From an uncultured delta proteobacterium (GTDB lineage Bacteria > Desulfobacterota > Binatia > Binatales > Binataceae), in the NCBI GenBank assembly GCA_963724765.1, contig CAVRVY010000001.1, positions 1,344,001 through 1,408,000 on the forward strand: DNA of 64,000 nucleotides, written 5' to 3'. Made by a program: the position numbers and the translations under genes. Positions 18,988 to 31,658 of this stretch are shown piece after piece (within the stretch, counting starts at the first letter, position 1; every line of letters starts with the position of its first letter). The notes under the pieces were generated by a model that saw only the letters and a program-made list of their open reading frames with translations, ran no database searches and was not told where the DNA came from.

Positions 18988-19977
18988 GTGGGAACGCCCG
19001 GACGGTATCGATCTAAGAAGGTGTCATTGACGACTAGAATCTTCTGCGCAGCGCGGCCGGAAAAGACGCCGGCCGGCGCTGGTGCAGACAATGGTGCGGC
19101 GGCCATCCTGAGGCTGCCCGACGTGCGCGCGGTGGTGGCGTTTGCCAGCGCCAAGGGCGGCGTCGGCAAGAGCGCCATCTGCGTGAACGTCGCGGCCGCC
19201 CTGGCGATGACCGGGCGCAAGGTCGCGATCATCGACGCCGACCTCAACTCGCCCAGCCTGCTCGGGATGCTAGGGTTAAAACCGCTTCGGCGGTTCTCGA
19301 CCGGTGAAGAGATCGATCCCGCTTCCGGTCCGTTGGGCGTCCGGGTCGTCGCTTCGAGCCAGCTCGCCGACGGCGAACCGGTGGCGTTCAGCTTCGTCGA
19401 AGACGAAGCTGCGCTGCCGCCGGCACCGTTGCACAACGGCGTGCGGCCACTCGAGATCGACCATCGTGCGGCGCTGCGCCGGCTGCTCGGAGCGCGCTTT
19501 GGCTTGCTCGACCTGATGCTCATCGATCTCGCCTCGGGGCTTTCGCCATTGCATGACCTGGCCGAAGTGATTGAGTTGACCGGGGTCGTGATGGTCACGC
19601 GTCCCTCCGAAGCCTGTGTGCGCGCGACCGATGCCGCGCTCAAGACTATCGTCCACGACGGGGTCCCGGTGCTCGGGCTGATCGAAAACATGCTCGGCTT
19701 CAACTGCGACAGTTGCCACACCGTGCGCCCGCTTTTTCCGCAGGGCGACTTCGCTGGCCTGGCGCATTCGGCCGAAGCGCAGATTCTCGGACGGCTTCCA
19801 TTCGACCCGCGGCTGGCGGATTGCGCCGAGCGCGGCGCGCTGTTCGTACGCGAGCATGCCGATGCGCCGATGTCCAAGCAGTTCGCGGTGATAGCCGCGA
19901 ATCTCGAGCAGGAGATCGCACGGCGCGCGGCAGCAGCAGCGGCGCCGCCGCCGCTTGTTACCGAAGAGCCTGCCTGA
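18988..19977 (+). CDS. Mrp/NBP35 (ApbC-like) P-loop ATPase, divergent; start uncertain
   Basis: ASAKGGVGKS deviant Walker A, IIDADLNSPS, LGLIENMLGFNCDSC (CxxC), LGRLPFDPRLA. Confidence 0.8.
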   Translation: MGTPGRYRSKKVSLTTRIFCAARPEKTPAGAGADNGAAAILRLPDVRAVVAFASAKGGVGKSAICVNVAAALAMTGRKVAIIDADLNSPSLLGMLGLKPLRRFSTGEEIDPASGPLGVRVVASSQLADGEPVAFSFVEDEAALPPAPLHNGVRPLEIDHRAALRRLLGARFGLLDLMLIDLASGLSPLHDLAEVIELTGVVMVTRPSEACVRATDAALKTIVHDGVPVLGLIENMLGFNCDSCHTVRPLFPQGDFAGLAHSAEAQILGRLPFDPRLADCAERGALFVREHADAPMSKQFAVIAANLEQEIARRAAAAAAPPPLVTEEPA

Positions 19978-20105
19978 GCGCACAGCCGCTTTTTGTGTGA
20001 TCCTGAGTCAGGCGAGTCTGCCTCTTGGTAAAGCTCTCTTCTTCAAAGGGGCCAGGGAACGATGATGGGTGGGGAGTTTTATTCAACCGAACTTGAAACT
20101 CAGGA

Positions 20106-21965
20106 CTAGCTCTCGTCGTTATCCGCGTCTGCGGTTTCGGTTATCGCGCGCGGCGCGGATGCGCTGCGGTGCGAGCACTCGAACATCCCGGCACCGACAA
20201 GATTTCCGACATGACCTCCGATACGAAAACTGGCGAATCCGAGCGAGGTCAGAATTCGACTTTGTGCGGGCCCCGGCCGCGAGAGCATCACGAAGCTCTG
20301 GACTTCGCCGTCGAGGCTGAGCGCTTGAGCGTCGCCGGCCGGCCGCAGTAGCGCGCTGATTCGATGCGGCGGGCGCCTGGGAGTTGCGGGCGTGAGTTCC
20401 AGCCGCTGGAGGCTCGCGTCGATCCATCGTCCGCGATCGAGGACGCGCGCGCTCGCGTTTTCGGCGCCGTCATCGCCGGTAAGCATTCGCGCCTCGACAA
20501 CGTGCCGAGACGCAGTGCCTGGAAAGGCGGCCCATATCATTCGCCGCTCTTTGAAAGTGCCGTTGCCGATCCCGATAAGCGAGCGACCCAGCCGGCCCAC
20601 GGCCTCAAGGCGATGTCTCGCTCCGGCTATCGAGAAGTGGCCGGTGACGCGGCCGAAAACGCCGTCGGCGGAGTGCTCCGCAGTGGTGATCAGTTCGATT
20701 AGCGTTTCGGTGCGCGATTTCAACGACGCGTGCGCCACCGGCCACACCTCGAACTCCGCGTGTAGCTCCATCGCTTCGTGCAGCGAGGCCTTTGCCAGCG
20801 CGCTCTCGACGCTCAGATACGCGGTGCCGTCTTCGACTACGACCGCCGGGCCTGTGAAATCGAAGCGTAGGCGCTCGCCCTCGATCCGCAATGCCAGCGG
20901 GCCAAGCGCCAGGCTTTGCGCCGTGCGTTCGACCCGTCCTTCGGCCGTGAAGAGCGCGATACGTTCGCGGCCCGTAACCGTCATCACGCGCGCACCCGCC
21001 GCGCCCGAGCCAAAATCGAAGCTCGCCATCGCACCCACCTGCGCCGACGAATCGTAAAACTCCAGTCCCACCCGAAGCGGCCCGGCGGAAGATTGCTGGG
21101 CACTGCGCCGGGGCGCTGATGAGGGCGGCTCGATGGTGCGGATGATCTCGATGCGGCTCGTGCGCTCGGTACGGCTTGTGCCGAACGCGTCGGCAGGCCG
21201 ATCGCATCGGGCGAACGATTCGGCGATCGCGGCGATGGTTTCGGTGCGGAAGCGGCCGGGCATCCGCAGCGCCACTGAAAGTTCGAGCTGCACCGCTTCC
21301 AGCGCGCCGCGCGCGTTGAGCGCGGCCAGGCGCTTGAGCGCGCCGACCGGGCTTGAAGCGTGACGTTGGGTGAACGCCTGGAGCAGATTGTTGGCGCCGG
21401 CGCCTGGATAGCGCAGGCCGAAGCTGGGCTTGATACCGCTGCGGCGGAGCGACTCGACGAAATCGAGCAGCGGCCCGTTGATAAAGCCGTCGCTGGCGGA
21501 GACGTGTGCGCCGCACGCCGGCAGCAGCGTCCCGCTGGCAGACTTGACGCCGACACCCAGGTCAACCCGGGGCTCGATGACGTTCCATCCGTGGATCACC
21601 AGCACCACCGCGCGTCCGCTGCGCGTCACGATTCGCTCCAGGCGCGCGGCAATAAGCTCGAGTATCCACGGCGCCTCGCTCATCACCTGGCTCAGGCGGT
21701 TGAGGTCGAGCCGGTTGCGATCCATCCCGGTATTGATGATCGCACCCGCGCCGAGGCGCCGCGCCAGCTCGCGCGTAATATCGGCAGTGTGCAGATCGTT
21801 GACCTTGGGATTGAGCGTCGCGCGCGTCGCCGGGCCGGCATGGCCGCCGTGAGGCGCGATCAGCAATACCGGCGCGTCGCCGTCGGGCCTCTGGAGCCAG
21901 CGCGCGCCTTTCGCCGCGGCGGCTTCGTCAAAGAGGCGCGACTTGGCCGTCGACCTTGCCATCAA
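20106..21965 (-). CDS. Hypothetical two-domain protein: N-terminal Zn-amidohydrolase-like region (N-formylglutamate amidohydrolase-like), C-terminal beta-rich region
   Basis: 619-aa ORF 6 nt downstream of the Pcs-like gene; LLIAPHGG, NDLHT, RNRLDLNR, VIHGWN, EAVQLEL. Fold assignment is inference. Confidence 0.6.
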   Translation of the reverse strand: MMARSTAKSRLFDEAAAAKGARWLQRPDGDAPVLLIAPHGGHAGPATRATLNPKVNDLHTADITRELARRLGAGAIINTGMDRNRLDLNRLSQVMSEAPWILELIAARLERIVTRSGRAVVLVIHGWNVIEPRVDLGVGVKSASGTLLPACGAHVSASDGFINGPLLDFVESLRRSGIKPSFGLRYPGAGANNLLQAFTQRHASSPVGALKRLAALNARGALEAVQLELSVALRMPGRFRTETIAAIAESFARCDRPADAFGTSRTERTSRIEIIRTIEPPSSAPRRSAQQSSAGPLRVGLEFYDSSAQVGAMASFDFGSGAAGARVMTVTGRERIALFTAEGRVERTAQSLALGPLALRIEGERLRFDFTGPAVVVEDGTAYLSVESALAKASLHEAMELHAEFEVWPVAHASLKSRTETLIELITTAEHSADGVFGRVTGHFSIAGARHRLEAVGRLGRSLIGIGNGTFKERRMIWAAFPGTASRHVVEARMLTGDDGAENASARVLDRGRWIDASLQRLELTPATPRRPPHRISALLRPAGDAQALSLDGEVQSFVMLSRPGPAQSRILTSLGFASFRIGGHVGNLVGAGMFECSHRSASAPRAITETADADNDES

Positions 21966-21971
21966 CCTTCA

Positions 21972-22685
21972 TCATGCACCGCGCCGATAACGCCTGAGTT
22001 TCATCGCCGCGCGCGCGTGCAGGATAAACGAGGCGGCGAAGTAATAAGCGATGAACGACAGCGAGGCATAGAGCAGTAACGGGTTATGTCCGGGTAACGC
22101 GGGCAACATTGCGAGCGTGATTATCGCCCAGGCGATCGCAAGCGTGAGTGTCAGCGCGCGCAGCGGCCCGGTGCGATTGGGATAGATGTACTTAATCGGC
22201 ACGAACACCATCAGTGCGAATATCGCGACGATGATCGTGCCGGCGAGCGCTCCGAGTTCGAGACAATAGAGATAAAACGCGACCAGGTTCCAGTACGACG
22301 GGAAGCCGCGGAAGTAGTGATCGTCGGTCTTGGCTTCGATGTGGCAAAATCCGTAGCCGCTCGCAACCATCACGAAGCCGCCGACGATGTAACCGCCGAG
22401 GCCGGGCTCTAAAATTCCCGCACGCAGCATCAGGAAGACCGGCGCGAGCACGTAGGTCAGATAGTCGACGACATTGTCGAGCAAGGCGCCGTCGAAGTGG
22501 GGGATGCGCCGGCGCACCTCGAGCAGGCGGGCGAGCGGGCCGTCGCTGGAGTCGATTGCGGTCGCAACCGCCATCGCGATGAAGCTCGCGCGAAAATCGC
22601 CGCGCGCGGCGTAATCGATAGAGAGCAGGCCGGCTACAGCGCCGAGCGCGGTGTACAGGTGAACGCCCCAGGCGCAAAGCCGCAG
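21972..22685 (-). CDS. pcs: Phosphatidylcholine synthase-like CDP-alcohol phosphatidyltransferase (start uncertain)
   Basis: Frame is open upstream of 22574 and encodes AWGVHLYTALGAVAG. Then IDSSDGPLAR, FDGALLDNVVDYLTYV, KTDDHYFRGFPSYWN, FVPIKYIYP, matching Pcs-type motifs. Confidence 0.8.
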   Translation of the reverse strand: MRLCAWGVHLYTALGAVAGLLSIDYAARGDFRASFIAMAVATAIDSSDGPLARLLEVRRRIPHFDGALLDNVVDYLTYVLAPVFLMLRAGILEPGLGGYIVGGFVMVASGYGFCHIEAKTDDHYFRGFPSYWNLVAFYLYCLELGALAGTIIVAIFALMVFVPIKYIYPNRTGPLRALTLTLAIAWAIITLAMLPALPGHNPLLLYASLSFIAYYFAASFILHARAAMKLRRYRRGA

Positions 22686-22737
22686 CCAGCGCTCGCGCGC
22701 AAGGGCGGCGGCGTCGCGGCCCGCCCGCGCAACCGGC

Positions 22738-23271
22738 TCACTTGCCGGGCTTGTGATGGCGCGGTCCGAAGTAGTCCTCCAAAATCGTCATGAACGGGCC
22801 GCAGGTGCGGCGCCCCTTGACGTGCGCGCAGGCCTCGTCGAGCGACATTTCGCCGTGCGCGCGCAAGTAAGCGATCGCGAGTGTCGGCGCGCGATTGAGA
22901 CCGGCGTTGCAATGCAGGTAAACGCGCTCGCCGGCGCTGATGAGGCTTGCCAGCGCGGCGAGCGTATCGGCGAGCCGCTCGGCCATCGCGTCCGCGCTGC
23001 CATCCTGGATCTGCGTGCGAACGAATTTGATTCCGCTTAAGCGGCAGGCCTCGGCGAGCTCACGTTCGCCGAGTCCATTGAGCGCCAGATCCTCGTCATC
23101 CTGAAGATTGTGAATGGCGGTGACACCGAACTCCGATTTGAGCCAGGCGATGTCGTCCGGGCGGGGAAATTCGCCGACCAGGAGTCCCGGAAAAATTTCT
23201 GTCACCGACGGACGGCCGCGATTGTGCGCCACGTGGCTCTGATGATCGGGTCGTTTGCTGAACCAGTCCAT
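22738..23271 (-). CDS. Dual-specificity phosphatase family protein (CX5R)
   Basis: VYLHCNAGLNRAPTLAIAYL; TEIFPGLLVG; general-acid loop IQDG. Confidence 0.9.
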   Translation of the reverse strand: MDWFSKRPDHQSHVAHNRGRPSVTEIFPGLLVGEFPRPDDIAWLKSEFGVTAIHNLQDDEDLALNGLGERELAEACRLSGIKFVRTQIQDGSADAMAERLADTLAALASLISAGERVYLHCNAGLNRAPTLAIAYLRAHGEMSLDEACAHVKGRRTCGPFMTILEDYFGPRHHKPGK

Positions 23272-23391
23272 CTTTTGTGAAGTGTGCGATCGCGACAGCC
23301 CGCTCCTGCGCGCCGCTAATTTTCATTTTAGCTCATCAGCCTGAGGCTCTAAACCTGGGAATCGCGGCGCTCGGTCAACCCCTTTGACTCC

Positions 23392-23476
23392 TTCCGTCGT
23401 CCTGAGCGAAGGCTGCCGGAGCGAAGGATCTCGCGCGGTCTTCCGCGCGTAATCCGCTACCTTCAGGATGACGGAA
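23392..23476. repeat. REP-like palindromic element (GTCRTCCTGAGCGAAG...GAAGGATCT...TCAGGATGAC type)
   Basis: TTCCGTCGTCCTGA (23392-23405) pairs with TCAGGATGACGGAA (23463-23476) with one G-T mismatch; GAGCGAAGG occurs twice internally. Confidence 0.65.
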
Positions 23477-23600
23477 CACGGCTTGTGCTGAACGCTTGTA
23501 TATCAATCTATAACTCAGCCCACTCGTGTCGCTCAGGTGCCAGGGTGGCCGGCGAGCAAACCCTGACGCCGGTGGCCTAGAGCGTCAGCGCATGCTGCGC

Positions 23601-26600
23601 TCAGCCCTTGGCGCGACGGCCGCCGCGCGCCGACGCGCGGCGCGGCCGATTCGCGGTGCGCGGCTCGTCGCCCGCCTCTCCAGCCGGCTGAGCGGTTTCC
23701 GCTGGGGCCACTGCGGTGCCGCCATCGTCGCTGTGCGCGCTATGCGCGCGCATGGAGCGCTTGGCCGCGCTGGACAGCGGCAGTCTCTCGCCCAGCGCCA
23801 GCACCGCCGCACGCATCGCGTCGGCGAGCTTGCGATAGGCGCCGGTGCCCTCGGCGTTGTCGGCGAGCGCGCGCAACTCGGCGTTGGTTATCACGCGGCC
23901 AATTCGGACTTCGACCGGGCGGCGATGCGGGATGATGCTGCCTTTGCCGAGAACCTCGTAAGTGCCGCTGATACGTACCGGCAGCACGTCGCATCCGCCG
24001 CGCAGCGCCAGGTAACCCGCGCCGCTTTTGAATTCGTGGATCGCGCCGTCGGGTGAGCGCGTGCCCTCGGGAAACATCAGGACGCTGCGCCCGGCATCAA
24101 GCTCGTCGATCGCGTCGTCGAGCGAGTCAAGCTGCGCGCGCTCGCGGTCGAACGGAATCAGGCGGGTGAAGTTGCTGACCACGAAGCGGCGCGCGTTGGT
24201 ATTGAAGAAATAATCCTTGGCGGCGAGCACGACCAGCTCGCGGCCCGGCGCGCCCAGCGCGTAGCTGGTGAGCGCGAAGTCGAGATGGCTCGCGTGATTG
24301 GCGACCACCAGGAAGTTGCGATTCGCCGGCACGTTGCCGCGGCCCAGCACGCGCGGCTGGAGCCAACCGTCAAACGCCATCCGCTGCGCCCCGCGAAACG
24401 CCGCTTCGCCCAGGCGCTTGAGCGCCCCCGGCAAGATCGGCGTGAACGGCTCGGCGAAGCGCGCGTATGACGGCAGCCGCGGGCGGTTCTGTCCCTGGCC
24501 CACGGCGCGTTGCAGATCGTCGACGGTGCGAAGGTCGCCTAGCTCCTCGGGGCTCAGCTCGCGCTCGGCGTGAGCCGCGATATGCTCGGCCAGTTCGGCC
24601 ATCGCCAGCGAGTCGAGTCCGAGGTCTTCGATAAGCCGGGTCGCGGGCGTGATGCTCTCGATGCCGCTGGAGACCTGGGCGAGCGCCTGGGCTAGCCACG
24701 GCTCGACCTCGGAGCTGACCGCCGCACGCTCCTGGGCGTGGCTCTCGAGCATCCGCGCGAGGATCCCGACGACTTCGAGGCGCTTGACCTTGCGCGTGCG
24801 GGTCCGCGGCAGCTCGGTGTCGGTGAAACGCAGGATGCGGATGCGTTTGTGCGGGCTGAGTCCCGCGCCCACCTTTTCGAAATGCGTACGCAGGTTGTCT
24901 TCCACGGCGCGACGGCTTTCACCGCGTGCGTAAGCCGGTACCACCAGCGCCGCGGCCTGCTCGCCCAGGGCAACCTTAAGCCCGACGATCGCAATCTCCT
25001 TGATATACGACGAGTGTCCGTAAACTTCTTCGAGTTCGTCGATATAAATATTGTTGCCGCCGGAGTCGACGATCACGTCCTTGGCGCGGCCAACGATGTA
25101 GAGCCGTCCGTCTTCGTCGAGGCGGCCGAGGTCTCCGGTGCGGAGCCACCCTTCGTGCAACACCTCGTCGGTGGCGGCTTTGTTGTGGTAGTAACCCGCC
25201 ATCACGTTCGGCCCGCGCGCCAGGATTTCGCCCACTGTGCCGTCGCCGCTGGAGGCGAGCTTGATTTCGACGCCATTGAGCGGCTTGCCGACCGACCCGG
25301 CGGCCATCGGTTCGTCCGGGCGCGCGACGCTCAGCACTGGCGCGGCCTCGGTCAGGCCGTAACCCTCGAGTAGCCGTATCCCGATGTCGTTGAAGAAGCT
25401 GGCTACGCGTTGCGGCAGCGCCGCGCCGCCGCTCACCGCGAGCCGCAGCCGCCCGCCAAGCGCGGTATGGGCCTGGCGGAAGAGCATCGCGCCGGCATTG
25501 AGACCCCATTCGCTGTCGAACCTGCGGTTGAGATCGCGCAGGCGATCGAACAACGCGTGGAGGAAGGGCCCTTGCGCCTCGACCCCGTCGACGATGCGGC
25601 GATGCACCGCCTCCCACAGCGCGGGCACGCCGACCACCGCGGTCGGCCGCACGTCGGCCAGCGTGCGCGCGAGGCTCGCGGCGTCCACGCCGAGCGGATA
25701 GACCACGGTCGCGCCGAGCGCGAGCGGCAACAGCATCCCGCACGTGAACTCGAAGGTGTGATGGAGCGGGAGCAGTGAGAGCACCACGTCGGAGGAATCG
25801 AGCGCAAAGACCCGCGCGAGCATCGCTACTTCGGCGGCGAAATTCCCATGCGTGAGCATCACGCCCTTGGGCGCGCCGGTGGTGCCGGAGGTAAAAACGA
25901 TGGAGGCGAGGGTCTTGCGCTCGGCGGCGGGCCGCGGGTCGGGCCGCCCTTTGAGCACGAAGGGACGGCTCAGCTCGGCGAACTCGAACTCGACGATCTC
26001 GCTGTTCAGCTCAGCCAGTGCGCCGCCCAGCCGCTTGGCGACGGCCGCCGAGCATAGCGCCGCAGCGGGCGTAGCGATGCGGCAGATGGGCGCCAGCTCT
26101 TCGGGCGAAATCAGATGGTCCAGCGGTACGGCGACCGCACCGGCGGCGAGAATCGAAAAATATGCGAGCACCCACTCGGGCGAGTTCTCGCCGATGAGCA
26201 GCACGCGGTCGCCCGTCTTGACCCCGCGCATCCCGAGCAACAGGCCGGCGCGATGCGCACCGTCGCGCAGCTCGCGGAAGGTGGACGTGATGCGCTCGCC
26301 CGAGGGTTGCCGCGCAACCAGCGCGGGCCGCGAGCCGTAGCGCTCAGCCGCGCGGTCCAGCATTTCGGCCAGGGTGCGATGGCGCGCCGGAGCGCTGGGG
26401 CGGCCGCGGGTATGCAGATCGAGCGAGCCGAAGATGTGCCGGCGCAGTCCCGGCAGATGCACGTTGATCCAGTAGTCCGCCCAATCGATTCGTTCGGGCG
26501 CGTAGGGATGATGCTCGGCGTCGGCACTCGCGAGCGATTTGTAGAGCGCGCGGATGTTGGTGCCGTGGAAGGTGTAGACGAGTTCCTGGATGTATGGGCG

Positions 26601-28019
26601 ATAGACCTCAACCAGCTCGCGCGCCATTGCGGTGTTGGCGCCAAACTTGTCGACGCTCTGCGCGAACTTTTTCGCGCGCTCGGAGTCCTCGCCAAGCAGC
26701 GTGCGCGCGGCGCCGGCGCCCTGCTTGAGCAACTCGGGCAGCGTCTGGCTCGCGAGCTCGTAAGTGCTCTGCGAGACGACCACCGCCTCCAGGTGCGGTG
26801 CAAAGCGGCCCATGGGACCGCCCACGCGGCGATGCTCGCGACGGTTGCTGAGCCCGGTCAGCTCGACCAGCCGGCGCATCGGCAACGGATTCACGTCGGA
26901 CGTGCAGAGCTGGTAGATGGGTTTGTGGCGTCCGGCGAGCAGTGCCGCGAGAATCGGGATCATCGCGTGCGCTGCAAGGTCGACCGGAATGACGTCGAGC
27001 ACCAGCTCGCCCTTGGCCGGGTACAGGCGATAACCGCGGCCGGAAAGATAAGTCAACGGAGCGCTGGTGTTGACGCCCTGGTTCCATCCGGGGAACGGGT
27101 CGCGGAGCGCGCTTTCGATGATCGAGGGGCGCGCCACCGTGGCGGCAATCGTGTCCTGCGCCGCGAACACCAGTTGCTCGCCGAGGCTCTTGCTGTAGCT
27201 GTAGGTGTTGGGCCATCCCCAGCGCCGCGCGCGCTCCAGGCCAATCTCCTTGAGCCGTTCTTCGACCCAGCGCTTGCGCCAGCGCTCGGCCGCCGCTTCG
27301 TGGACGTCGCCGCCGTCGGCGTCCGCATTGACCACGTGCAGCTCGTCGGCCTGGCGCGCCTGGTCGTGGGATTCCGCTTCCACGCGGGCGACCGCGGCGA
27401 GCGCGTCGCGGATTTCGCGCCGCAGCGTGAAATTGCGCCGGCCGTTGGGACACCAGTCGGTCGGTATGTCGTCCTCGAAACGATGGCCGTCCGCGTTGCC
27501 CGCGGCGTAGCAGGTCGAAACATGGAGCAGCGCGGCGCCGCGCTTGCGGCAGAACTCGATCACGTTGGCAACGCCGGTGGTGTTGACCGACAGCGACTTC
27601 TCCAGCGAGGCCTCGAAGTTGACCAGTCCCGCGCAATGCACCACCGCGTCGATCGCGCCGCGGCCCGGCGCCTCGCCCTCGGAGACCAGGTCGTCCTCGG
27701 TGATGTCGCCGCAGAGCACGGAAAGCTTTTCCTCGACGTAGCGGTCGAAGCGGTCGCCAAGGTGTTCGCGCAAAGGACCGAACACGGGCGAGTCGAGAAT
27801 TTCGCGGCGCAAGCGGCTGAGCGCGAGGCGGCGGTCGCCGCGGATGAGCAGGTAGATGCGCTCGATCTCGGGATGCCAGCGCAGGAGCAGCGAGAGGAAG
27901 ACCTTGCCGAGAAAGCCGGTCGCGCCGGTCAGCAGGATGCGGCGGTGGCGCAGCGTCTGTTCGAGCGGCGCCATCGCGGTGCGCGCGGCGCTGCCGTTAG
28001 TTCCATTGCTATTCGACAT
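23601..28019 (-). CDS. elbD: ElbD-like multidomain lipid enzyme: fatty acyl reductase, acyl-CoA synthetase, acyl carrier, PlsC acyltransferase
   Basis: 1472 aa. TGATGFLGK and NTYSYSK (FAR/NAD_binding_4); FTSGTTGAPKG, EGYGLTE, TGDLG (AMP-binding); DLGLDSL (phosphopantetheine site); NHASHLD and FPEGTRS (PlsC). Domain order matches Myxococcus ElbD. Confidence 0.85.
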   Translation of the reverse strand: MSNSNGTNGSAARTAMAPLEQTLRHRRILLTGATGFLGKVFLSLLLRWHPEIERIYLLIRGDRRLALSRLRREILDSPVFGPLREHLGDRFDRYVEEKLSVLCGDITEDDLVSEGEAPGRGAIDAVVHCAGLVNFEASLEKSLSVNTTGVANVIEFCRKRGAALLHVSTCYAAGNADGHRFEDDIPTDWCPNGRRNFTLRREIRDALAAVARVEAESHDQARQADELHVVNADADGGDVHEAAAERWRKRWVEERLKEIGLERARRWGWPNTYSYSKSLGEQLVFAAQDTIAATVARPSIIESALRDPFPGWNQGVNTSAPLTYLSGRGYRLYPAKGELVLDVIPVDLAAHAMIPILAALLAGRHKPIYQLCTSDVNPLPMRRLVELTGLSNRREHRRVGGPMGRFAPHLEAVVVSQSTYELASQTLPELLKQGAGAARTLLGEDSERAKKFAQSVDKFGANTAMARELVEVYRPYIQELVYTFHGTNIRALYKSLASADAEHHPYAPERIDWADYWINVHLPGLRRHIFGSLDLHTRGRPSAPARHRTLAEMLDRAAERYGSRPALVARQPSGERITSTFRELRDGAHRAGLLLGMRGVKTGDRVLLIGENSPEWVLAYFSILAAGAVAVPLDHLISPEELAPICRIATPAAALCSAAVAKRLGGALAELNSEIVEFEFAELSRPFVLKGRPDPRPAAERKTLASIVFTSGTTGAPKGVMLTHGNFAAEVAMLARVFALDSSDVVLSLLPLHHTFEFTCGMLLPLALGATVVYPLGVDAASLARTLADVRPTAVVGVPALWEAVHRRIVDGVEAQGPFLHALFDRLRDLNRRFDSEWGLNAGAMLFRQAHTALGGRLRLAVSGGAALPQRVASFFNDIGIRLLEGYGLTEAAPVLSVARPDEPMAAGSVGKPLNGVEIKLASSGDGTVGEILARGPNVMAGYYHNKAATDEVLHEGWLRTGDLGRLDEDGRLYIVGRAKDVIVDSGGNNIYIDELEEVYGHSSYIKEIAIVGLKVALGEQAAALVVPAYARGESRRAVEDNLRTHFEKVGAGLSPHKRIRILRFTDTELPRTRTRKVKRLEVVGILARMLESHAQERAAVSSEVEPWLAQALAQVSSGIESITPATRLIEDLGLDSLAMAELAEHIAAHAERELSPEELGDLRTVDDLQRAVGQGQNRPRLPSYARFAEPFTPILPGALKRLGEAAFRGAQRMAFDGWLQPRVLGRGNVPANRNFLVVANHASHLDFALTSYALGAPGRELVVLAAKDYFFNTNARRFVVSNFTRLIPFDRERAQLDSLDDAIDELDAGRSVLMFPEGTRSPDGAIHEFKSGAGYLALRGGCDVLPVRISGTYEVLGKGSIIPHRRPVEVRIGRVITNAELRALADNAEGTGAYRKLADAMRAAVLALGERLPLSSAAKRSMRAHSAHSDDGGTAVAPAETAQPAGEAGDEPRTANRPRRASARGGRRAKG

Positions 28020-29649
28020 CAGCGATCACCAGCGGCGGTAAGTGGAGATAGGTGATACTGGCCGAGCGCCCCAGATCCGACGTCGCCATCGCGATCGCCT
28101 CGTCCAGCGTGTCGGCCGACTCCCATCCCATACGCGTTGCGACTTCCGGCTCCTCGCATCCTGCGGCGATTACCCGTCCTACGTGCTGGCGAGCCGGCTC
28201 GCCCCAGTACCACATGTAGAACGGATGCACGCCGTGATAGGCATGGCCGTAGCGATACATGTGAACGTAGGTCGGGTTGCGTGCGAACTCGGCTTCGAAG
28301 TTGCGCTCCAGCTCGGTGGCCTCGGTGGTCTCGCGCAGGCAGCGATGGAAGAACTCGATGTAACTCGGATGATGCTCGGGGTGAAACTGATCGCGCAACG
28401 GATGACAGATGATCACGGTACCGCCTTCGCGTACCAGCGGCTTGCCGCGGAACATGTTGAACAGGTAGCCAAGACCCGTGCACTGCACCAGCACCGGGTT
28501 CATCACCGAGTTGACGTTGTAGGGGCAGACGTAGGGAACGCCTACGATCAGCACGTCGGACTGGCCCTTGACCGGCACCGCGTATTGCTGGAACACGCGG
28601 GCCAGCGCCTTGCGATGCACCGCGTCGGTCTCGCCCGCCCACACGCCGGTCATCGAATAGGGCGCGGCGTATTGATTGAGCACCTGGCGGCGCAGTGAAT
28701 CCGACATGTTGCCGAGCGTCCAGCGAAAGCCCTTCAACCGCATCCGATCCCAATCCGAGAAGCGGTCCTCGTTCTTCTGCAGAAAATCGAGCATCCCGCC
28801 GTACATCTGGTTGTTGATCGCGGTCTCGATGGTGAAGACATTGACGTGCTCGTTGACCAGGCGGCCCATCCGGTTGGCCGAGTGATGCAGCGCCGATCGC
28901 GTCGGGTCCATGTAGGAATTGCACTGGCGCAGCGTGGCCGGGTTGTGATGGTGGCGCAGGCTCTGGTAGGGCGCGAGGCCGACCGCGACGGATTTGTGGC
29001 CGCCGTCCATCGGGACCAGGTTGATGTTGAGATAGAGCAGCAGGTCGGACTCGGCCGCGCGGCGTGAGAGCCATACCTCCTCGCCATGATCGGTCTTGCC
29101 CAGCATCGCCAGCTCGGCGCGATTCTCGGCGTCGAAGTTATACAGCCGTTCGGGCCAGAACTCCTTGAACGCGCGCTCGCCCACCATGCGGCGAATCTCG
29201 GCCTCGGTCATGCGCCGATGGAGCGAGGTTGCGACGATCAGATGGACATCGTCGACGCCGTAGTCGGCGAGCGTCTGGAGTACGATGTTGAGCGCGCGCT
29301 CGCGGATATCGGGCCGGCGCATCTGCGGCAGCGGCAGGCTGATGTCGTCGATCGCGATCGTGACGCGCATGTTGGGATTGAGCTGCGCGAACAGCGGATC
29401 GGCGTTTTCAGGACGTAACAGCGCGTAGCGGATCGCGGCATCAGGATTGGCCAGCGGCTCCAGCGGCGGCGGGGGATAGATCACTCGCGTGCCGGCGGGC
29501 AGCTTCTCGTACCAGAAGTCGTCGCCATAGGCGATGAGCCGCGGCGCCGAGCGCCGGTTGAGCGTCACCACCAGGTCTCGGCGCGCGCCGGGCTCGTGCC
29601 GGAGTTCGGCGGTCTTCAGCTCTTTGAGCTTACCTTCCGGTCGCGCCAT
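28009..29649 (-). CDS. Lactate racemase (LarA/DUF2088)-domain protein
   Basis: VTIAIDDISLP, IVATSLHRRMTEAEI, GKTDHGEEVWLSRRAAESDLL, DGGHKS, LVREGGTVI. Overlaps both neighbours. Confidence 0.8.
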   Translation of the reverse strand: MARPEGKLKELKTAELRHEPGARRDLVVTLNRRSAPRLIAYGDDFWYEKLPAGTRVIYPPPPLEPLANPDAAIRYALLRPENADPLFAQLNPNMRVTIAIDDISLPLPQMRRPDIRERALNIVLQTLADYGVDDVHLIVATSLHRRMTEAEIRRMVGERAFKEFWPERLYNFDAENRAELAMLGKTDHGEEVWLSRRAAESDLLLYLNINLVPMDGGHKSVAVGLAPYQSLRHHHNPATLRQCNSYMDPTRSALHHSANRMGRLVNEHVNVFTIETAINNQMYGGMLDFLQKNEDRFSDWDRMRLKGFRWTLGNMSDSLRRQVLNQYAAPYSMTGVWAGETDAVHRKALARVFQQYAVPVKGQSDVLIVGVPYVCPYNVNSVMNPVLVQCTGLGYLFNMFRGKPLVREGGTVIICHPLRDQFHPEHHPSYIEFFHRCLRETTEATELERNFEAEFARNPTYVHMYRYGHAYHGVHPFYMWYWGEPARQHVGRVIAAGCEEPEVATRMGWESADTLDEAIAMATSDLGRSASITYLHLPPLVIADVE

Positions 29650-30427
29650 CCGTAGCTCTCCCCAGCCAGTCCAGCAGCCACGTCCCGGTTGAGCTGCCGT
29701 CGCGGACGGGCTCGGCGTCATGGCTGAAACGAACAATGGGCCATTTGCGATTGTGCGCGGCGGCGAGCAGGCGGCGATCGGGATTGACGGCCACCGGATG
29801 CCCCAGCGCGCAGAGAAAGGGTAAGTCGTAGTATGAGTCGGCGTATCCCCAGCATCCCGCCATGTCGACGCGGCACGCCTCAGTGAAGCTTTCGCACCAC
29901 TGCGACTTCTCGGAACCCGCCATCACCGGCTCCAGCATCCGGCCCGTAGCGAGTCCGCGGCTGTAGACCAGGCGGTTGGCGGCGAAATATTCGATCTTGA
30001 GGCGGCGCGCGAGCGGCTCGACCAGGAAATCAGGCGACCCGGTAACCAGCACCGGTTCGATTCCGGCGGCGCGATTGGCCTCGAGCATTTCGATCGCGCG
30101 CGGATACAGATGGCGCATCAGCACCCGGTCGCAATACTCGTCTCCAAGTTCCCACAGACGGTCGCGCGAGACCCCCTTGTAGGCCTCGAACAGCATCATG
30201 TTGAGCAGCCGGCGGTCGTGACGCTCGGCCATGTAGAGCCGCGGAAGGCTGAGCGCGAGACGGGCGAGATAGCCGGCACGTCCGCTCCATTCGCCCAGGT
30301 TGGCCATGTAGAAGACGGTGGCGTGCAGCAGGTTGAGACTGGCCAGCGTGCCGTCGAGGTCGTAAAAGGCCAGCACCTTAGCCCGGCCGCGGGAGCTGCG
30401 TCCCGTTCTGGTCGCATAAACTGACAT
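29630..30427 (-). CDS. HAD-IB (SerB-like) phosphatase
   Basis: AFYDLDGTL, LVTGSP, K in GSEK, GYADSYYDLPFL, AVNPDRRL. Confidence 0.92.
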   Translation of the reverse strand: MSVYATRTGRSSRGRAKVLAFYDLDGTLASLNLLHATVFYMANLGEWSGRAGYLARLALSLPRLYMAERHDRRLLNMMLFEAYKGVSRDRLWELGDEYCDRVLMRHLYPRAIEMLEANRAAGIEPVLVTGSPDFLVEPLARRLKIEYFAANRLVYSRGLATGRMLEPVMAGSEKSQWCESFTEACRVDMAGCWGYADSYYDLPFLCALGHPVAVNPDRRLLAAAHNRKWPIVRFSHDAEPVRDGSSTGTWLLDWLGRATDGATGR

Positions 30428-30428
30428 G

Positions 30429-31079
30429 TCATTCTACCTTGGGCCCAGAAACAGCGCGCTCAGCCGTTGGCAATTCGCCACGCCGGCGGGCTTCGTCGAG
30501 CAACTCCGGGCGCGCCACGCCACCCAGTCCGAAGGCCAGAATTTCTTCGACTAGCGAATCGATCTCACGCGGGCGCCGGCGCGCGATCTGGCCGACCACC
30601 TCCTTGATTCCGCCCAGGATGCAATAGGCGGCGATGCGCGTGTCGCAGGGACGCACGAGGTTCATCTGCACGCCCAGGTCCAGCGAACGCTGGATGGCGT
30701 CGGCGATGCGCTGGTAGAATTCCAGGATCCGCAAATCGAGGTCGCGGTCGAAACCCACCGAGTGGTTGAGCAGGATATCGGTCAATTCGCGCTCCGCCAG
30801 CACGAAATTCATCACGCGCTTGAGGTTGTCGCGCAGTTGATTGACCGGGTCGGGTTCATCCGCGCGCAGGCGCTGGATGCGTCGTGAAAGCTCGGTTAGC
30901 ACTTGGGCGAGCAGTTCCTCGAAGAGATCCTTCTTGTTTTGAAAGTAGAGGTAGAAGGTACCTCGTGCGATACGAGCGCGGGCGATGATATCAGCGACAT
31001 TGGTCCGATGATAGCCTTTGCGCGCGAATATCCGCTTGGCATGGCGCAACACCTGGGCGCGCCGGGCCTGTCGTTCCAT
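30429..31079 (-). CDS. TetR/AcrR-family transcriptional regulator
   Basis: FARKGYHRTNVADIIARARIARGTFYLYFQNKKDLF helix-turn-helix; ends 1 nt before the HAD start. Confidence 0.95.
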   Translation of the reverse strand: MERQARRAQVLRHAKRIFARKGYHRTNVADIIARARIARGTFYLYFQNKKDLFEELLAQVLTELSRRIQRLRADEPDPVNQLRDNLKRVMNFVLAERELTDILLNHSVGFDRDLDLRILEFYQRIADAIQRSLDLGVQMNLVRPCDTRIAAYCILGGIKEVVGQIARRRPREIDSLVEEILAFGLGGVARPELLDEARRRGELPTAERAVSGPKVE

Positions 31080-31181
31080 TACAAGAAAACCTCAGGAGAA
31101 TAAGACCCTATCGGCCCGTTCCGGTAGTGTCAAACCTTCCCTTTGTGGATAACCTCCACGCCGCGGTCGGGCTTTCGATGC

Positions 31182-31658
31182 TCACGGAGAAGGTGGCGAC
31201 GGCGGGCACGGACTGCAAGCCGACGCCGGCTGTCCGACGCCTATCAGCACCGGCGGGCTTATCACCGTCCCGGAGGCGGCCGTAATACACGTGCACCCCG
31301 TCACCGTGTGCGAGGTGAAGAAGCCTTGACCCTCACTGGTGAGGAGCGAATTGTTGACGAACCAGTTTGCCGACGGCGAGATATTCTGGAAAGTGCTGAT
31401 CCCGTTGGAGCTGAACTCACCCTGGGCATAGAACTCGTAGTCGTCGGTGCTGAGCGGAATCTCAGCCGAGGTGGCTTGTGTACACGCGGCCCCGGTTGAT
31501 GGAGCCTGCGCGCAGACCCGCATCACTATCAGCGTTATCGGCGTGACGGTAGGAGACGGGGCCGAGCTGCTCGAGCCGCCGCCGCAACTGAGCAGCAGCG
31601 TCGTCATCACGAAAGCCAGTACAGGCCCGACAATCAAGCATCTTTTTTGCCACATCAA
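31182..31658 (-). CDS. Cys-rich lipoprotein, possibly with an Ig-like domain
   Basis: Signal ...VLAFVMTTLLLS-CGGGSSSS lipobox; FYAQGEFS...NISPSANW pattern; several Cys. Confidence 0.65.
   Translation of the reverse strand: MMWQKRCLIVGPVLAFVMTTLLLSCGGGSSSSAPSPTVTPITLIVMRVCAQAPSTGAACTQATSAEIPLSTDDYEFYAQGEFSSNGISTFQNISPSANWFVNNSLLTSEGQGFFTSHTVTGCTCITAASGTVISPPVLIGVGQPASACSPCPPSPPSP

Follow-up and report, generated by a model that had tools for sequence, protein, structure and literature searches.

A family-wide variant of the ElbD ether-lipid cluster in Candidatus Binataceae, with a predicted nickel-pincer enzyme and a neighbouring Pcs-like gene

Positions 20106-31079 of the 64,000-nucleotide (nt) stretch of DNA analysed here (the window; part of contig CAVRVY010000001.1 of assembly GCA_963724765.1) hold seven minus-strand open reading frames (ORFs): a tetR-type regulator gene, counterparts of the myxobacterial ether-lipid genes elbB, elbC and elbD, and a trio consisting of a phosphatase gene (dsp), a gene for a Pcs-like CDP-alcohol phosphatidyltransferase (pcs) and a gene for a two-domain protein of 619 amino acids (aa) (Table 1). 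The locus is a genuine variant, shared across the family, of an ether-lipid cluster already known from other hosts. Its layout is best read, from the sequence, as two adjacent head-to-tail transcription units, tetR-elbBCD and dsp-pcs-unknown, and we consider it reasonably probable that these are a Binataceae version of the myxobacterial ether-lipid core on the one hand and an older, class-wide gene trio with its own promoter on the other. The most useful lead is ElbC, a predicted nickel-pincer nucleotide (NPN) enzyme and, speculatively, a candidate for the ether-forming step. All seven genes stand, co-oriented, at the coordinates given by the original prediction; its non-myxobacterial host can now be named as Candidatus Binataceae, by closest named homologs, and, as it stated, there is no separate epimerase/reductase gene among the ORFs or domain matches of the locus.

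As had been proposed, the ElbD counterpart carries four domains in one chain, namely FAR (residues 30-353, plus Sterile at 466-530), an AMP-binding ligase domain (554-1077), an acyl carrier protein (ACP; 1108-1169) and PlsC (1223-1351), and what we take to be their catalytic motifs are intact (TGATGFLG, YSYSK, FTSGTTGAPKG, LGLDSL with the ACP serine, NHASHLD and FPEGTRS). It is 39% identical to ElbD of Corallococcus exercitus over 1452 columns and colinear with it over the whole length, while the HAD and LarA-like proteins are 35% and 52% identical to the proteins at the elbB and elbC positions of Corallococcus, which stood in for M. xanthus in these alignments. The Corallococcus loci are ordered epimerase-HAD-LarA-like-ElbD-epimerase, which the elbABCDE layout of the Myxococcus xanthus operon matches (PMC9131029; the operon goes back to Lorenzen et al. 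2014, cited via PMC9131029 and PMC13012113, and is MIBiG entry BGC0000871, via PMC9426513). The Binataceae locus shares with M. xanthus the elbB-elbC-elbD order and the four-domain ElbD, but is led by a TetR gene and contains neither elbA nor elbE, that is, no NAD-dependent epimerase/dehydratase gene of either kind.

A HAD gene also adjoins elbC in 49 of 59 non-Binataceae elbC loci; with the TetR of this locus as query, no TetR homolog was found beside any of the 59, and the best weak match of this regulator is of the Bacillus FadR type. Within the class Binatia, the FAR domain of ElbD occurs in 23 of 25 Binataceae genomes and in 0 of 175 genomes of other families, and ElbC scores above its family cut-off in 22 of 24 family relatives. 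The Binataceae ElbC proteins form a single clade (SH-aLRT 100 in a quick tree of 66 rows) for which no donor can be named, no record in a plasmid search covered 80% of ElbD, and the GC content of the locus (62-68%) is similar to that of the remainder of the window. As one part of the explanation we favour, the elb unit was probably gained by an ancestor of the Binataceae.

Two further sequences related to this core were seen. A second ligase-carrier-acyltransferase protein of ~830 aa, without the reductase domain, is encoded elsewhere in the genome of the window (G000:C4:923559-925964, minus strand) and is also found in relatives. In G010, a second elbC-elbD fragment (69% identical) lies on a short contig (L050; G010:C183:1-2858) and possibly reflects bin contamination.

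ElbC passes the model for LarA groups 14/15/16 (Table 1), for which the gene at the elbC position of Corallococcus scores 838 bits. Residues D131, H173, K248 and H264 occur without exception in all 79 near-full-length ElbC homologs, and by the residue equivalences read from an alignment to 9q2u/9eid, the NPN-binding lysine and histidine and the first catalytic histidine are kept (K248, H173 and H263/H264, in 77-79 of the 79). No histidine stands in ElbC at the place aligned with the second catalytic histidine (H174 of LarA). In this it differs from canonical lactate racemase and the 2-hydroxy-acid epimerases, and it resembles LarA groups 14 and 15, which lack this residue as well (PMC12611868; dataset rows of PMC7583248). 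Groups 14/15/16 share with ElbC the score above the family cut-off, the D/H/K/H residues and the lipid-enzyme neighbours, and the histidine-lacking groups have no known activity: Frankia LarAH14 showed none in any of seven assays (PMC7583248). The neighbours listed for groups 14-16 are HAD, epimerase, acyl-CoA synthetase, PlsC and thioester reductase (Desguin et al. 2020, PMC7583248 Table S1); the words ‘lipid’ and ‘acyl’ do not occur in the main text of that paper.

ElbC is the sole PF09861 match in the genome, and larB, larC and larE all score above their cut-offs, which predicts NPN cofactor synthesis. Together, these features lead us to predict that ElbC is a nickel-pincer enzyme of LarA groups 14/15/16. 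Similarly, larC was found in 13 of 14 hand-picked non-Binataceae elbC genomes, and among three Binataceae without ElbC it is missing in two and present in one. The argument that ElbC alone explains the retention of larBCE was abandoned, since 15 of the 16 genomes sampled from other Binatia families carry larC, and in none of them does an ElbC score above cut-off.

Class-wide larC, mostly without a match to LarA groups 14/15/16, suggests another nickel-pincer client in Binatia. In G028, a more distant gene of this kind (L179:7853-9604; 499 bits, below the cut-off) lies beside hydrogenase-maturation-like genes, with elbD not nearby.

Whether the trio belongs with elbD was left by the original prediction to synteny in relatives. 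Synteny was counted over genomes with G handles only, one per species and with visible flanks; the 41-genome count leaves out G218, where the contig ends, and G006, G022, G042 and G111, in which no elbD was found. In 36 of the 41 Binataceae genomes, dsp lies 3′ of elbD on the same strand and within 3.2 kb, and in 35 of the 41 this holds for pcs too. The trio thus does stay by elbD in most relatives, so that the unlinked trio which would have refuted the original prediction is not seen, and the arrangement is real rather than a product of chance. Yet the trio is linked at least as tightly to its other neighbour: of the 40 genomes in which the flanks are visible, 37 have an unrelated, convergent housekeeping gene, mrp, next after the 619-aa gene, so that the linkage to elbD is not specific. 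Where the trio lies apart from elbD (G009, G020, G021, G023 and G095), it is beside mrp in four of five cases. The run tetR-HAD-LarA-ElbD is unbroken in Binataceae loci with visible flanks, and breaks and insertions fall at the elbD-dsp junction, where insertion sequence-like and other genes are found; in G020 the insert measures 10 kb, and in G009 the two sides lie 56 kb apart. A gene resembling Zn-phospholipase C and S1-P1 nuclease, with a signal-peptide-like start, lies 3′ of elbD on the same strand in 14 of the 41 genomes (examples in Table 1) and remains near elbD when the trio is away; it was not found in the genome of the window.

The two sets of genes are also lost independently of each other. 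G042 (98% complete) has tetR and an intact trio, with one unrelated opposite-strand gene in place of elbBCD (L202:7197-9340), and in G022 (92% complete) the trio is present but neither elbC nor elbD was found. Conversely, G182 (96% complete) has elbD, dsp and the 619-aa gene, with no pcs found. Outside the family, where the ElbD reductase domain is missing from all 175 Binatia genomes, 167 of these 175 have a single copy of the Pcs-like gene; class-wide it is present, again in single copy, in 192 of 201. In these other families pcs, dsp and the gene for the 619-aa protein lie at unrelated places (30 loci), and the 619-aa protein itself was found in 13 of 16 genomes. None of the three genes was found beside elbC in the 59 non-Binataceae loci, which reach 15 kb or more in just 32 cases.

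The near-universal Pcs-like gene suggests that the class Binatia may make phosphatidylcholine (PC). No paper on PC in Binatota was found in a literature search that left most subscription journals outside.

The Pcs-like protein is matched best, and over its whole length, by five Pcs models (NF045884-NF045888; 137-193 bits), far above PssA (30 bits), and its DxxDGxxAR...G...D...D motif is intact. It differs from proven members in that its scores lie under all five cut-offs (300-440), in its non-standard start within the genus (see below) and in an alcohol substrate that is only predicted. Since the Pcs models are lineage-specific, the low scores lower its membership, not its likeness. PgsA and PssA score above cut-off elsewhere in the genome and Psd is present too. 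No solved structure related to the Pcs-like protein was found by sequence, and no BCCT transporter was found in the genome, the search for choline uptake being limited to BCCT. As a further part of the explanation we favour, this protein is probably the cell's single housekeeping phosphatidyltransferase for choline (or a related alcohol), and not an accessory specific to ElbD. Since Pcs looks like a housekeeping enzyme of the entire class, its neighbourhood with ElbD holds only modest interest in itself.

The reading as two transcription units draws in part on promoter-like signals. The tetR, HAD, LarA-like and elbD genes abut or overlap, and a gap of 329 bp separates elbD from the phosphatase gene. 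In a sigma70 scan of 19900-31300, the site at 23325-23353 within this gap is the only promoter-like match, with 1.4 matches expected by chance. Across 34 distinct loci, 27 have a -10-like hexamer at most 90 nt upstream of dsp, compared with a mean of 9.3 ± 2.4 and a maximum of 16 in 300 shuffles and with 9 of 34 on the reverse strand; in many genera the hexamer lies 6-10 nt before the start codon. Upstream of tetR, TTGAC/TGAC -35-like and TA-containing -10-like boxes recur across Binataceae loci, as judged by eye and without a shuffle control. The proposal that the TetR protein controls the whole cluster, including the downstream trio, finds no clear support in these data: the search for a shared palindromic operator upstream of tetR found none (the best shared core occurs in three loci), and dsp has a promoter-like site of its own.

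Neither of the other two proteins of the trio suggests head-group chemistry. The nearest solved relative of the phosphatase is the plant phosphoglucan phosphatase LSF2 (4kyq, E 3.6e-19), followed by SEX4 (6e-10), which places it closest, among solved structures, to the LSF2/SEX4/laforin glucan phosphatases. It differs from LSF2 in being only 177 aa long, with no carbohydrate-binding module, and in the replacement of several LSF2 aromatic residues that presumably act in glucan binding. A reading as a PTPMT1-like lipid phosphatase is unsupported, PTPMT1 not being among the 50 matches listed. The 619-aa protein of the window has no match in Pfam or NCBIfam, a profile search of solved structures returned 0 hits, and Pfam FGase falls below its cut-off in relatives. 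A structural model based on an alignment of 110 sequences (mean predicted local distance difference test, pLDDT, 91.4; 34 for a single-sequence model) shows an N-terminal metallo-amidohydrolase fold of the FGase/PghP type (2q7s: Z 16.6, root-mean-square deviation (rmsd) 3.1, 199 aligned residues) and a C-terminal AttH/CrtC-like double barrel (DUF7064; 2ich: Z 20.6, rmsd 3.3, 251 aligned residues; 6kbc: Z 20.8). In the N-terminal domain, D57, H125 and E228 are invariant and H39 is kept in at least 90% of the 110 sequences, and these four residues are putative metal ligands. AttH-type barrels often bind hydrophobic ligands, but a shared fold assigns no function to this protein.

How the locus could work can be sketched from its domains. 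ElbD would activate a fatty acid and load it onto its own ACP; for the M. xanthus protein, ligase and carrier activity have been shown, and ElbD is needed there for ether lipids (PMC9131029). The reductase domain would convert the acyl group into an aldehyde or alcohol, the PlsC domain would acylate a glycerophosphate acceptor, the HAD enzyme would remove a phosphate and, more speculatively, hydride transfer by ElbC might help attach the alkyl chain to glycerol. This would yield a 1-O-alkyl-2-acyl backbone for the general CDP-diacylglycerol routes. The second unit would consist of older class-wide genes that were assembled in Binataceae under a promoter of their own. Pcs could add choline to the ether backbone, while PssA and Psd could equally plausibly lead to ether-phosphatidylethanolamine. 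Judged from the gene content, ether-PC is possible for the simple reason that the ether backbone would encounter the only Pcs of the cell.

The original prediction saw in the trio a dedicated head-group module, which is plausible but weakly supported. In its fullest form, the seven genes (eight with the phospholipase C-like gene) would be one module that makes alkyl-acyl glycerophosphate and converts it into ether-PC, with the phosphatase, phospholipase C-like and AttH-barrel proteins handling intermediates. The same-strand adjacency in 36 of 41 genomes fits this view, as do the assembly of the trio only in the family that possesses elbD, the phospholipase C-like gene that joins the neighbourhood in 14 of 41 genomes and the ligand preference of AttH-type barrels. 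Moreover, Acidobacteria of subdivision 4 are reported to combine ether lipids, PC head groups and elbD homologs (bioRxiv 10.64898/2026.06.23.733905). We nevertheless hold a single module to be unlikely: linkage to elbD is no tighter than that to mrp, pcs is class-wide where the ElbD reductase domain is absent, the trio has its own promoter signal, losses have occurred independently in both directions, non-Binataceae elbC loci do not have these genes beside them within the DNA covered, the phosphatase is nearest to LSF2 and the 619-aa protein is amidohydrolase-like and AttH-like. Several observations weigh, in turn, against two separate units. In G086 and G166 the trio keeps elbD and loses mrp, and there may be selection for the elbD-trio neighbourhood. 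The genomes compared are kin, which means that the synteny counts are not independent. The promoter signal before dsp, too, comes from related loci and from a -10 rule set with the sequences already in view, and is support rather than proof. Finally, no terminator-like site was found in the elbD-dsp gap, so that read-through from elbD is possible.

It is similarly improbable, in our judgement, that elbBCD without ElbA and ElbE stops short of the ether bond and gives fatty aldehydes or alcohols, wax esters or remodelled ester lipids, even though this alternative draws on a real gap in the gene set. The closest match to ElbE that the genome offers (33-35%) belongs to a cluster made up of two squalene-synthase-like genes, an FAD-dependent gene and an HpnA-like gene, presumably hpnC-hpnD-hpnE-hpnA by gene order; it was rejected as an ortholog from this hopanoid-type context, and no ElbE ortholog was found in the genome. 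Its absence matters because inactivation of elbE lowered ether lipids in M. xanthus (PMC9131029), and the reductase and acyltransferase activities of ElbD were undetected in vitro (PMC9131029). In Pontiella, no ether lipids were detected despite its elbD homologs (PMC11868695), so that such homologs do not guarantee ether lipids. On the other side, ElbD is colinear with the myxobacterial protein with all motifs intact, ElbB and ElbC have been retained, another reductase such as HpnA could substitute, and sponges in which ether lipids are present harbour clusters consisting of just elbB and elbD (bioRxiv 10.64898/2026.06.23.733905). A bolder proposal, which we also regard as a long shot, makes ElbC the missing ether-forming catalyst, a nickel-dependent equivalent of the flavoenzyme AGPS, with the neighbouring Pcs then giving ether-PC in Binataceae. 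ElbC would transiently oxidise the sn-2 hydroxyl of an acyl-glycerophosphate, the fatty alcohol made by ElbD would replace the sn-1 acyl group and the hydride would then be returned, the loss of the second histidine corresponding to a loss of stereo-inversion. Also rather unlikely is a reading in which ElbC contributes nothing to the ether bond and acts instead as an epimerase of hydroxy acids or sugar acids, or serves as a scaffold without cofactor. Every LarA enzyme characterised so far racemises or epimerises 2-hydroxy acids, and the protein called LarAH15, which may or may not correspond to group 15 of 2020, acts as a gluconate/mannonate epimerase (PMC11770544). A polar elbB insertion was partly rescued by elbD alone (PMC9131029). 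This view has to contend with the second catalytic histidine missing in groups 14 and 15, the inactivity of Frankia LarAH14 and the lipid enzymes among the listed group neighbours. A role for ElbC in ether-lipid synthesis is weakened, for its part, by the FAR domain being visible in only 29 of the 59 non-Binataceae elbC loci (within the fetched DNA), by sponge clusters that have elbB and elbD without elbC (bioRxiv 10.64898/2026.06.23.733905), by larC, whose class-wide presence in Binatia is no specific evidence for such a role, and by the existence of further nickel-pincer clients (PMC13524815).

Non-myxobacterial elbD clusters have been described in sponge-associated Acidobacteriota and Poribacteria (bioRxiv 10.64898/2026.06.23.733905; PMC9426513). 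Like the Binataceae locus, they lack some elb genes and are adjoined by CDP-alcohol phosphatidyltransferase or phosphatase genes; they differ in host lineage, and the main text of the preprint never names Pcs, elbC, lactate racemase or Binatia. The general combination of ElbD with a CDP-alcohol phosphatidyltransferase is therefore already published (section 14 of the preprint), and the view that an ElbD-plus-Pcs arrangement is undescribed holds only insofar as the enzyme is not named Pcs there. M. xanthus is described as having no choline lipids (PMC9131029), whereas the Binataceae host has a Pcs-like gene. The ether-bond step of the ElbD pathway is still unsolved (PMC9131029), and the link between ElbC and the nickel-pincer enzymes makes this question directly testable in M. 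xanthus. If active, the Binataceae cluster would add a source of the bacterial ether lipids used as environmental markers; if the reading of ElbC is true, Binataceae would be an ether-lipid source that was not found reported in the literature searched. That search, outside which most subscription journals lay, found no paper joining Binatia with ElbD, LarA with ether lipids, or elbC with nickel in Myxococcus. A CarF-family match was not found in the genome by a search that had no positive control.

Table 1. Features of the locus, with related genes elsewhere (window coordinates unless a locus handle is given).
Feature	Position	Strand	Basis or remark
Promoter-like site of the tetR-elbBCD unit, sigma70 type	31105..31133	-	TTGACA, 17 nt, TAGGGT; read from sequence
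TetR-family regulator	30429..31079	-	PF00440 E 7e-16; NF053878 64.6 bits vs cut-off 200
ElbB counterpart, HAD-IB phosphatase, DLDGT motif	29630..30427	-	TIGR01490 98.7 bits vs cut-off 98.3
ElbC counterpart, LarA superfamily	28009..29649	-	NF052592 (LarA groups 14/15/16) 839 bits vs cut-off 740
ElbD counterpart, 1472 aa, FAR - acyl-AMP ligase - ACP - PlsC	23601..28019	-	Domain matches
Short repeated element in the elbD-dsp gap	23388..23455	.	9 further blastn matches in genome
Promoter-like site of the trio	23325..23353	-	TTTAGA, 17 nt, TAAAAT; 53 nt before dsp ATG
dsp, CX5R dual-specificity phosphatase	22738..23271	-	PF00782 E 4e-15; HCNAGLNR motif
Pcs-like CDP-alcohol phosphatidyltransferase	21972..22757	-	Five Pcs models best; non-standard start, candidates CTG 22685 / ATC 22757
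619-aa two-domain protein	20106..21965	-	Structural model: FGase/PghP-type fold + AttH/CrtC-like double barrel (DUF7064)
Zn-phospholipase C / S1-P1 nuclease-like gene, examples	L039:10044-10985, L051:2128-2985, L083:16023-16871		
Hopanoid-type cluster holding the best ElbE match	L205:1872-6121 (G000:C1 near 1273900-1278100)		

The repeated element in the elbD-dsp gap is presumably of the repetitive extragenic palindromic (REP)-like kind. Gene starts deserve a comment in two cases. The mechanical ORF of the LarA-like gene spans 28009-29736, and ATG 29649, where homology to other genera begins, is the likelier start. For pcs, the mechanical ORF of 200 aa (ATG 22574) is too short, as coding extends upstream through a conserved first membrane helix, before which no in-frame ATG, GTG or TTG is found here or in 13 of 16 genomes of the genus. 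The pN/pS of 0.14 in the segment before the first pcs ATG equals the gene body value (13 of 16 genus genomes; three with indels left out). With this segment under purifying selection and no standard start ahead of it, a non-standard start at CTG 22685 or ATC 22757, or recoding from dsp, is likely. The odds are low that a programmed frameshift links dsp to pcs, as inspection by eye showed no slippery site that stood out as invariant. Other Binataceae genera have a standard pcs start in 20 of 20 rows, and in 17 of 17 rows of a second set (partly the same genomes). The 3′ end of dsp itself shows raised synonymous conservation, with 7 of 14 codon columns invariant compared with 16 of 105.

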